Shown here: one piece after another, positions 36,448 through 37,622 of the stretch
Layout: every line of letters starts with the position of its first letter
Numbering within the stretch: position 1 is the first letter of the stretch
Source of the DNA: Leptospiria bacterium
GTDB lineage: Bacteria > Spirochaetota > Leptospiria > Turneriellales > CBDBES01
Reading direction: 5' to 3'
Assembly (NCBI GenBank): GCA_965261485.1
Contig: CBDHCY010000005.1
Location: 333,813 to 397,812, forward strand
Length of the DNA: 64,000 bases
Position numbers and translations under genes: made by a program
The notes under the pieces: generated by a model
The model's database searches: none
What the model saw: only the letters and a program-made list of their open reading frames with translations
What the model was told of the DNA's origin: nothing

Positions 36448-37622
36448 ATTGCGAGTGATGCTTCGCTCTCTGAGCGAAGAGTGCCGATCGACAGTCGCGA
36501 GTGATGCTTTGCTCTCTGAGCGAAGAGTGACGATCGATAATCACGAGTGATGCTTTGCTCTCTGAGCGAAGAGTGACGATCGATAATCACGAGTGATGCT
36601 TTGTTGTGCGAAGGGTGGAGGGCACGCCGACAGTCGCGAGTGATGCTTTGTTGTGTGAAGAGTGACGATCGCCAGTCACGAGTGATGCTTTGATCTCTGG
36701 GCGGGAGTGCCGATCGATAGTCACGAGTGATGCTTTGATCTCTGGGCGGAGAGTGCCGACCGCCAGTCACGAGTGATGCTTTGCTCGCCGGGCGGATGGT
36801 GCCGACCGCTAGTCGCGAGTGATGCTTCGCTCGCTGGGCGAGAGTGCCGACCGCTAGTTGTGAGTGGCGTTCTACTCGCCGGGCGAAGGGTGCCGATCGT
36901 CAGTCGCTATTGATGCTTTGCTCGCAGGGCGGATGGTGCCGATCGCCAGTCACGAGTGATGCTTTGCTCGCTGGGCGGGAGTGCCGACCGCCAGTCACGA
37001 GTGATGCTTTGCTCGCCGGGCGGAGAGTGCCGATCGATAGTCACGAGTGATGCTTTGATCGCAGGGCGGAGAGTGACGATCGCCAGTCACGAGTGATACT
37101 TTGCTCGCCGGGCGGAGAGTGGCGACCGCTAGTTGCGAGTGATGCTTTGCTCGCTGAGTGGAGAGTGCTGACCGCCGTTACGCGTGATGCCTCGCTCGCT
37201 AGGCGAAGGGCACGCCGACCGCCAATCACGAATGATGCCTCGCTCGCCGAGCGGAAAGGCGACCGATAATCGCAAATGATGTTCTACTCGCTGGGCGGAG
37301 GGTGTCGACCGCCGTCACGAGTGATACTTCGCTCTCTGGGCGGAGGGTATCCGATCGACAGTCACGAGTGATGCTTCGCTCGCTGGGCGGATGGTGACGA
37401 TCGCTAGTCACGAGTGATGCTTTGCTCGTTGGGCGAAGGTTGGCCGACCGCCAATCACGAATGATGCCTCGCTCGCCGAGCGGAAAGGCGACCGATAATC
37501 GCAAATGATGTTCTACTCGCTGGGCGGGAGTGCCGACGACTAGTCACGAGTGATGCTTCGCTCCCCGGGCGGAGGGTGGCCGACTGCCAGTCACGAGTGG
37601 CGGTCTACTCGCCGGGCGGAGT
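36448..37622 (+). repeat. GC-rich tandem array of ~46-bp hairpin-containing units, 26 units
   Basis: Anchor GAGTGATGC or variants recurs at spacings of 42-48 bp (mode 46). Each unit consists of an AGTCRCGAGTGATGC box, a short GC hairpin, and a GTGCCGACCGCC tail. Starts 33 bp after the stop codon. Confidence 0.95.

Follow-up and report, generated by a model that had tools for sequence, protein, structure and literature searches.

What is the GC-rich block of tandem ~46-bp units that directly follows a surface-lipoprotein gene in an AT-rich chromosome, and where did it come from? We addressed this question for array 1, the larger of two such arrays in a 64-kb stretch of DNA from a Leptospiria bacterium (contig CBDHCY010000005.1; "the window" below is this whole stretch), in which each array lies 3' of a lipoprotein gene, here called cassette 1 and cassette 2. 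The array is very probably a lineage-specific minisatellite, or variable-number tandem repeat (VNTR), whose unit originated from the 3' end of the lipoprotein gene. Judged by sequence comparison, each unit goes back to the last codons and stop region of this gene, from which it has diverged, and relatives carry one to four copies at the same place; the initial annotation of the array had missed both points.

The outline of the array agrees in most respects with that annotation. Tandem Repeats Finder placed it at 36452-37621, with a period of 46, 25.6 copies and 76% matches, and with higher-order periods of 137 and 229, while anchoring on the box CGAGTGATGC gave 26 units, the number reported before. 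The successive spacings are 46,46,46,47,42,45,46,46,46,45,46,45 in the first half and 46,46,46,45,48,44,45,47,46,47,44,45,47 in the second; they reproduce the previous list except at the ninth to eleventh positions, where 46,45,46 replaces 45,46,46, depending on the choice of anchor in the degenerate unit a10. The three-part structure of the unit (box, hairpin, tail) and its stem-loop potential were likewise found again, and the hairpin coordinates 36461-36479, 36507-36525 and 36830-36842 proved exact. Ten more units form array 2, and a solo partial unit, situated ~115 bp upstream of the 5S rRNA gene, brings the total to the 37 counted earlier; all lie on the + strand, and a search with a unit profile revealed no further copies in the 64-kb window. 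Array 1 has a GC content of 0.52-0.54 as compared to ~0.27-0.34 in its surroundings (~30% in the genome), which agrees with the earlier description, and rare variants, such as the tail GGGCACGCCGACCG, are common to arrays 1 and 2 (repeat families D6, D9, and D10).

The first evidence on the origin of the unit comes from the coding ends that precede the arrays. The end of gene 1, ...GGTGCTCTGATCGCAGGGCAACGATAG, aligns with unit a14, GATGCTTTGATCGCAGGGCGGAGAGTG, and the unit profile matches this coding end at 36389-36406, while the coding end of cassette 2, TCATACGGTGCTCTGATCAAAGGGCAACGATAAACGACCGACCGCGAG, passes straight into unit b01. When the profile was run with a permissive threshold over 194 kb (388 kb with both strands), the weak matches outside arrays lay at the very end (~25 nt) of seven ...GQR-stop genes and without exception covered model positions ~11-30; the rest of the 388 kb gave only four background matches. 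Variants of the unit (CTGATCGCAGGGC, CTACTCGCTGGGC, CTCCCCGGGC, and GCCGGGC) match codon variants in the C-termini of paralogs (CTG-ATC-GCA-GGG, CTA-CTC-GCT-GGG, CTC-CCC-GGG, and a GCC-GGG ending). The triplet that forms the hairpin "loop" corresponds to the Ala/Pro/Ser codon of these C-termini, another relation that had gone unnoticed.

The wider protein family indicates the direction of descent. The cassette-1 protein is 100% identical to the database protein P0001, which is encoded on a 2,133,161-bp contig with dozens of paralogs, and the GLUG motif was detected in the paralogs. Exact look-ups of the proteins of the window and of P0001 and P0002 yielded no record, and cluster look-ups yielded no names. 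Nearly all of the more than 100 cassette-1 homologues end in ...YG.L..GQR (in fuller form ...C-A-S-Y-G-x-L-x-x-G-Q-R-stop), and this ending is kept even in genes without a downstream unit (L107, L108, and L117). Because the C-terminal motif is family-wide and also present in unit-less genes, the coding end is ancestral and the units are derived. In L105, a 1.92-Mb relative, four homologous genes are each followed by one or two 52-bp units, which still translate as Asp-Ala-Leu-Leu-Thr-Gly-Gln-Arg-stop, and the array keeps the register of the coding end.

A different reading of the same homology, that the array is a repetitive C-terminal extension or a pseudogene, deserves almost no credence. 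The units do stem from coding sequence, some homologues continue for a few codons beyond ...GQR, and gene callers have put open reading frames (ORFs) in the arrays of relatives (e.g., L109 7850-8221). Against this, the period of 46 is not a multiple of 3, the unit lengths of 42-48 bp preserve no frame, and every unit ends in TGA in the ancestral frame (within GAG-TGA-TGC). The longest + strand ORF within array 1 has 68 aa, and array ORFs, including those of 62-210 aa on the − strand, have no match in Pfam, in agreement with the earlier view that the array is non-coding. The genes that public annotation calls inside the arrays of relatives are most likely spurious; the − strand ORF at 36138-36770 of the window is comparable to them.

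Table 1. Coordinates of the arrays, their units, and the adjoining genes in the window.
Feature	Coordinates	Strand	Description
Array 1	36446..37621	+	26 head-to-tail units of 42-48 bp; consensus CAGTCACGAGTGATGCTTTGCTCGCTGGGCGGAGAGTGCCGACCGC
Array 2	41403..41862	+	10 units of 43-48 bp, same family as array 1
Solo partial unit	42083..42116	+	Hairpin plus tail, no box; nhmmer E = 0.004
"Unit 0" of array 1	36375..36414	+	Last codons Y G A L I A G Q R stop; homologous to unit positions 13-30
"Unit 0" of array 2	41357..41402	+	Coding end, stop codon, and flank; in register (~50 nt) with the first unit
Exact internal repeat block, array 1	37214..37298 = 37443-37527	+	85 bp, 100% identity, offset 229 bp = five units (repeat family D10)
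AT-rich spacer	36415..36445	+	Sets array 1 off from the preceding stop codon; degenerate heptamers, AATTGA(C/G/A)
Cassette-1 surface-lipoprotein gene, GLUG-repeat family	34429..36414	+	Likely start ATG 34462; C-terminus ...CASYGALIAGQR-stop
Cassette-2 lipoprotein gene	39372..41390	+	C-terminus ...CASYGALIKGQR-stop
Rpn-like (YhgA / PF04754) gene	37733..38782	+	PF04754 E = 1e-33, residues 5-191 (Pfam, NCBIfam)

Copy number differs widely among the seven genomes or contigs, the window included, in which units follow homologous genes; homologues that are more distant have no units. The number of units per locus is one or two in L105, one short unit in L110, one to three in L111, two in L118, and four in L106, while L109 has arrays of ~10, ~21, and ~11 units (approximate counts, its assembly having about 2x coverage) and the window has 26 and 10. 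L109 is ~80-86% identical to the window, with the module in the same order. Its array between the cassette-1-like gene and the Rpn gene contains 10 units, as against 26 in the window, and the flanks of the two arrays are collinear on both sides at 81-82% identity. Over ~238 kb (the window and nine relative loci), the units are found solely 3' of the ...GQR-stop lipoprotein family, always co-oriented with the gene. Searches elsewhere gave nothing comparable: the unit had no blastn match in plasmid and phage collections; metagenome contigs (JGI) gave 0 matches to AGTGATGCTYYRCTCRCTGGGC and five isolated chance matches to TCRCGAGTGATGCTTYGCTC, on contigs of 51-62% GC; and among the matches listed for the two-box pattern CGAGTGATGC-N30-40-CGAGTGATGC in genome contigs there are only single chance matches in high-GC genomes, none of which fits the unit profile.

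The arrays also bear traces of exchange. The duplication with a 229-bp offset that had been seen in array 1 (37222-37300 and 37451-37530 in the initial annotation) is real, with 100% identity over the block given in Table 1; by its sequence, the block is the mark of a recent internal unequal exchange or slippage event. Two of the L109 arrays have a block in common (7653-7820 and 12035-12202), and coding-end-like copies together with AT spacers are embedded within L109 arrays. In addition, the rare unit CAGTCGCTATTGATGC lies in the same neighbourhood of array 1 of the window and array 3 of L109.

From these results we propose an explanation in which a minisatellite seeded by the gene end expanded, with the probable consequences set out below; as a whole, we regard it as probable. 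The seed would have been a tandem duplication that took in the final 8-9 codons (…Ala-Leu-Leu/Ile-Ala-Gly-Gln-Arg) together with the stop codon and ~20 nt of flanking sequence. The ancestral state, still present in relatives, would be one to four copies placed after the stop codon and ahead of the promoter region that serves the next gene, followed in the lineage of the window by an expansion to 10-26 copies at every cassette. Out-of-register pairing of units, by either replication slippage or unequal homologous exchange, may have driven this expansion, presumably within single arrays and also across paralogous cassettes, with their arrays and coding ends as partners. As no terminator lies between the stop codon and the array, the array is probably transcribed as the 3' untranslated region (UTR) of the gene, and each unit could then adopt one of two hairpins, A or B. 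It is quite possible, if short of an even chance, that the array is a tolerated by-product without function.

Several observations weigh against this explanation. A GC content of ~54-60% is kept across relatives in a ~30% GC genome, which suggests that neutral slippage alone is insufficient; the GC content may be maintained by selection, by reseeding from the constrained coding end or by GC-biased conversion. Arrays of at least 10 units occur only in the two genomes that have Rpn genes interleaved among the cassettes, and this correlation is not predicted by a minisatellite model. The perfect 8-bp stems of units a01-a03, b02, and b05 could reflect selection for a hairpin. Furthermore, we infer the 3'-UTR status of the array, and the comparison with L109 involves indels that, like its unit counts, are approximate.

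We examined the hairpins in alignment A1, which comprises 72 distinct units and draws on four genomes. Two helices are possible, hairpin A, (C)GAGUGA - UGCU - UYGCUC(G), and hairpin B, CUUYGCUC - 3 nt - GRGCGRAG, which share the UYGCUC arm and are thus mutually exclusive. Each helix has standard pairs in ~88% of cells as compared to 31-61% when the partner is slid by 1-3 columns. On the sense strand, the mismatches are mainly G·U and seldom A·C (154:31 in hairpin B and 118:13 in hairpin A), which agrees with the T·G apposition on the + strand described earlier for a frequent variant. Together with the co-orientation of every unit with its gene, these figures fit a structured RNA, whose 3'-UTR stem-loops would stabilise the lipoprotein mRNA against 3' exonucleases, terminate or attenuate transcription or give rise to ~46-nt RNAs. 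The perfect 8-bp stems mentioned above, which are absent from the ancestral coding end, point the same way, as do units of L111 and L106 that differ in two pairs changed on both sides of the stem (CCUCGCCC/GGGC(A)GAGG vs CUUCGCUC/GAGCGAAG).

Other results speak against a structured RNA. The observed covariation score was reached by 113 of 500 shuffles for hairpin B and by 48 of 500 for hairpin A, RNAalifold gave −1.39 kcal/mol with 0 compensatory pairs for the 72 units, and the stem variation is almost wholly one-sided (R or Y opposite U or G); the earlier claim that complementarity is kept while the stem sequence changes was not borne out. Nor is the folding exceptional, since dinucleotide shuffles match stretches of 300 nt in stability (z = −0.18 for the + strand and −0.31 for the − strand). 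Single units fold better on the + strand (summed −491 vs −375 kcal/mol), and the shuffles of the 300-nt stretches reproduce the strand difference (−104 vs −74 kcal/mol). This asymmetry arises because the + strand is G+T rich, and we discarded it as a sign of a sense RNA. The arm common to both helices indicates that the pairing is partly internal similarity between the halves of the unit; the box, 3' arm, and tail are all GAG[UC]G[AC]-like. Two frequent variants, GATC and CTAC, each disrupt the stem in 10-14 units, and the short first units of L110, L111, and L118 have no 5' arm. No terminator-like site was found in or just after the arrays, where there is no U-tract, and Rfam gave no match at the gathering score or at E <= 1. 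The hairpin potential is real, and the tests lend no support to selection for an RNA fold. An RNA-hairpin role of the array is unlikely, and a structured RNA as the explanation of the array is slightly more unlikely still.

If such a role exists, the repetitive extragenic palindromes (REPs) and bacterial interspersed mosaic elements (BIMEs) of E. coli would offer a plausible model by analogy, namely stabilisation of the upstream message. These are short GC-rich imperfect palindromes that follow stop codons, are transcribed with the upstream gene, and stabilise the 3' ends of mRNAs; REPs are scattered over the whole genome, occur in either orientation, and are linked to REP-associated tyrosine transposases (RAYTs). 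The units resemble them in being short, GC-rich, and clustered just after stop codons, and in looking imperfectly palindromic. In contrast to REP/BIME elements, they stand in tandem, in one orientation and 3' of one gene family (the ...GQR-stop genes of the window and the nine loci). Their two alternative helices of 7-8 bp have 88% of cells paired and show neither covariation nor excess stability.

This comparison bears on a further rival, in which a mobile repeat of the REP or miniature inverted-repeat transposable element (MITE) type, a CRISPR-like array or a set of iterons adjoins the genes by chance. The units are short, GC-rich, partly palindromic, and present at several loci, and their length falls in the class of REP, CRISPR, and mycobacterial interspersed repetitive unit (MIRU) repeats. 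Against this, they are homologous to the coding end of the host gene, are not dispersed in the ~238 kb, and keep a single orientation. The units abut, with the whole 46 bp repeated and no spacers between them, which differs from CRISPR, where unique spacers of similar length part the repeats and cas genes lie nearby, and 46 bp exceeds the ~17-22 bp of iterons, direct repeats that stand at a replication origin beside the gene of their cognate initiator. The context is moreover chromosomal, with a 16S rRNA gene, a 5S gene, a tRNA-Met gene, and housekeeping genes in the window, and no cas, RAYT or replication-initiator-like genes are among the annotated neighbourhood genes. This explanation is highly improbable, and the earlier statement that the array fits neither REP/BIME elements nor CRISPR nor iterons stands.

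The gene that follows array 1 raises the question of whether the array is a target for a protein. The Rpn-like gene contains in-frame 12/24-bp repeats at 38510-38677 (…KGxT…, 4-aa units), and, judging from its domains, it looks like an antiphage toxin-antitoxin gene of the RpnL/RpnS type, a resemblance that the initial annotation did not record. Variable-number 4-aa repeats are described for RpnL/RpnS antiphage toxin-antitoxins, including L. interrogans homologues (PMC10400941). The likeness concerns the neighbour gene only and consists in an N-terminal PF04754 nuclease domain and a C-terminal region with 4-aa (12-bp) repeats; as a difference, the available parts of the Rpn literature do not mention an interleaving of rpn with lipoprotein cassettes and minisatellites. 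Rpn genes alternate with lipoprotein cassettes both in the window and in L109.

On a reading centred on this protein, the Rpn-like nuclease, or some other factor, would bind or cleave the box AGTCRCGAGTGATGC, and the array would be a programmed hotspot of recombination through which lipoprotein cassettes are switched. The order array-then-Rpn recurs, in array 1 of the window and in two of the three L109 arrays, and the restriction of arrays of at least 10 units to genomes with interleaved Rpn genes is in keeping with it, as the five loci without an Rpn gene within 10 kb carry one to four units. According to one report, the Rpn proteins of E. coli act as DNA endonucleases and promote recombination that is independent of RecA (PMC5350276), and the authors of another speculate that local expansion and duplication of repeats could start with RpnL (PMC10400941). 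Against this, tandem duplication of a lipoprotein-array-Rpn segment would explain the adjacency as a single event, and two of the five large arrays (array 2 of the window and array 3 of L109) are not followed by an Rpn gene, while the five loci just mentioned have units without one. The inverted repeat TCAC-GA-GTGA, formerly taken for a dimeric site, has arms of only 4 bp, with a left arm that is TCAC, TCGC, TTGC or TTAC, and is absent from L105. The Rpn gene itself carries the hallmarks of RpnL/RpnS antiphage toxin-antitoxins, hypervariable 4-aa repeats included, and the available parts of the literature give no sequence-specific Rpn site. We consider this explanation very unlikely, and any link between array and Rpn gene beyond adjacency is speculation.

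The gene-end-seeded minisatellite has a further possible consequence, which concerns recombination between cassettes. The 5' and 3' ends of cassette 2 are 89-98% identical to those of cassette 1 (repeat families D1, D12, and D13). The array would be a long 3' homology block which, together with this conserved 5' leader, would permit exchange of the variable core of the gene; such a role as a recombination arm between paralogs is conceivable, and we advance it tentatively. The pil loci of Neisseria have a Sma/Cla repeat downstream. The two systems are alike in having a conserved non-coding repeat 3' of each variable surface-protein gene, with conserved flanks around a variable core; they differ in that the repeat is tandemly amplified here, where neither silent partial cassettes nor non-reciprocal conversion appear in the data and the mosaic arrays are what suggests recombination. 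A more elaborate version, quite doubtful in our judgement, would make the arrays the 3' homology arms of a surface-lipoprotein variation system in an uncultured Leptospiraceae lineage. Its module would begin with a perfect, phase-variable 8-bp repeat and a GLUG lipoprotein gene of variable sequence and be completed by the 46-bp array and the gene for an Rpn nuclease. Breaks made by Rpn or borne by the array would be repaired from paralogous cassettes, which would swap lipoprotein genes and stack old 3' ends into longer arrays. The unit core GCTGGGCGG also recalls E. coli Chi (GCTGGTGG), and neither motif occurs outside the arrays in the window; a Chi-like role was not retained.

Among described repeats, the array behaves like a minisatellite: spacer-free, non-coding tandem units differ in copy number at equivalent loci and occur at several loci per genome (in the window two arrays besides the solo unit, in L109 three arrays). 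MIRU-VNTR loci are similar in that both have 40-100-bp units that are head-to-tail, intergenic, present at several loci, and different in copy number between close relatives (PMC2734929). The function of MIRUs is debated, with effects on gene expression among the proposals (PMC2734929). The units have no sequence relationship with MIRUs and differ from them in copying the coding 3' end of the upstream gene, in being confined to the 3' side of one lipoprotein family, and in being GC-rich in an AT-rich genome. The loci used for multilocus VNTR analysis of L. interrogans (VNTR4, VNTR7, VNTR10, and others) are likewise intergenic 34-46-bp tandem repeats with strain-variable copy number, and the available part of their description reports neither derivation from a coding 3' end nor linkage to a lipoprotein family (PMC4641467). 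The unit profile had no match in the tandem units of VNTR4 and VNTR10, the two loci compared (PMC4641467). The reverse complement of VNTR4 is superficially alike, and kinship was rejected because the profile search found no match.

Leptospiraceae markers that the relatives carry suggest that the organisms of the window and its relatives share a broad lineage with L. interrogans. FcpA, Lsa36, and LIC11073, which we take by name to be Leptospira-associated, are encoded on homologue-bearing contigs; together with the dispersed rRNA genes, they would point to an uncultured Leptospiraceae-like organism. What is unusual here is the origin of the unit in a coding 3' end, its confinement to a variable lipoprotein family, and its place in a module with an 8-bp perfect repeat and an Rpn gene. 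The array would illustrate a clear route for the birth of a minisatellite, in which a short tandem duplication of a coding 3' end is amplified and exchanged across a large family of surface proteins, with intermediate stages of one to four copies preserved in sister genomes. For annotation, this would account for spurious GC-rich ORFs in such arrays, and this leptospire-like lineage, which is uncultured, would gain a ready VNTR marker. Should the arrays indeed act as recombination arms, they would be part of an undescribed lipoprotein variation system, along with the 8-bp phase-variable repeats and interleaved Rpn nuclease genes.

The 8-bp repeats, (ACAGAACT)n, are near-perfect (99-100% match) and lie ~265 bp upstream of the likely start codon of each cassette. 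They occupy 34059-34196 and 38989-39138 in the window (17.1 and 18.8 copies) and 1083-1202, 5166-5245, and 9623-9737 in L109 (15, 10, and 14.4 copies). The first one follows an ATG (34056), so that a leader ORF reads through the tract, and terminator-like hairpins are located between repeat and gene at 34232-34247 and 39178-39193. The repeat has the look of a switch for phase variation by strand slippage, which may work by way of leader translation and attenuation.

The spacer before array 1 is a microsatellite, (TTGACAA)n or (AATTGAC)n with 3-6 copies, which creates overlapping TTGACA and CAATTG motifs. A (TTGACAA)n tract occupies the same position between stop codon and first unit in L106, L109, L110, L111, and L118 (L110 9745-9775 and 11620-11665; L111 5840-5870; L118 after 6661 and 9411), and copies of the heptamer are also embedded in the L109 arrays. 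Just after array 2, at 41881-42016, a promoter-like element (TTGACA, 17 nt, TAGGCT) precedes a small ORF of 33 codons, MPTSTLEKQQ…SLESESSQ…, which resembles the N-terminus of the homologue P0062 and may be the leader of the next family member. Element and ORF are conserved after the units of L106 (2265-2320), L110 (9815-9850), L111 (5915-5975), and L118.

In L105, a second and different coding segment that resembles a C-terminus (…AWNFGTLMQIPALKYADYDGTGT…CGEFIPGQGR-stop) comes after the units, at 1877-2242, 5410-5585, 8185-8370, and 10878-11243; gene calling made it a gene of 121 aa. It resembles the C-termini of three more GLUG lipoprotein paralogs that lie in tandem in the window (12431-15013, 15350-18166, and 18510-20795) and could be left over from an exchange of C-termini or act as a donor in one. 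These three paralogs have 90-bp in-frame coding repeats, a different C-terminus (…SITQ-stop), and ordinary AT-rich terminator hairpins, and no 46-bp unit follows any of them. Both lipoprotein cassettes and the Rpn gene are situated between the 16S rRNA gene (31061-32592) and a lone 5S gene (42233-42349), which are unlinked; the window contains no 23S gene, and its 16S shares no more than ~80% identity with those of the plasmid collection, which includes no close relative.

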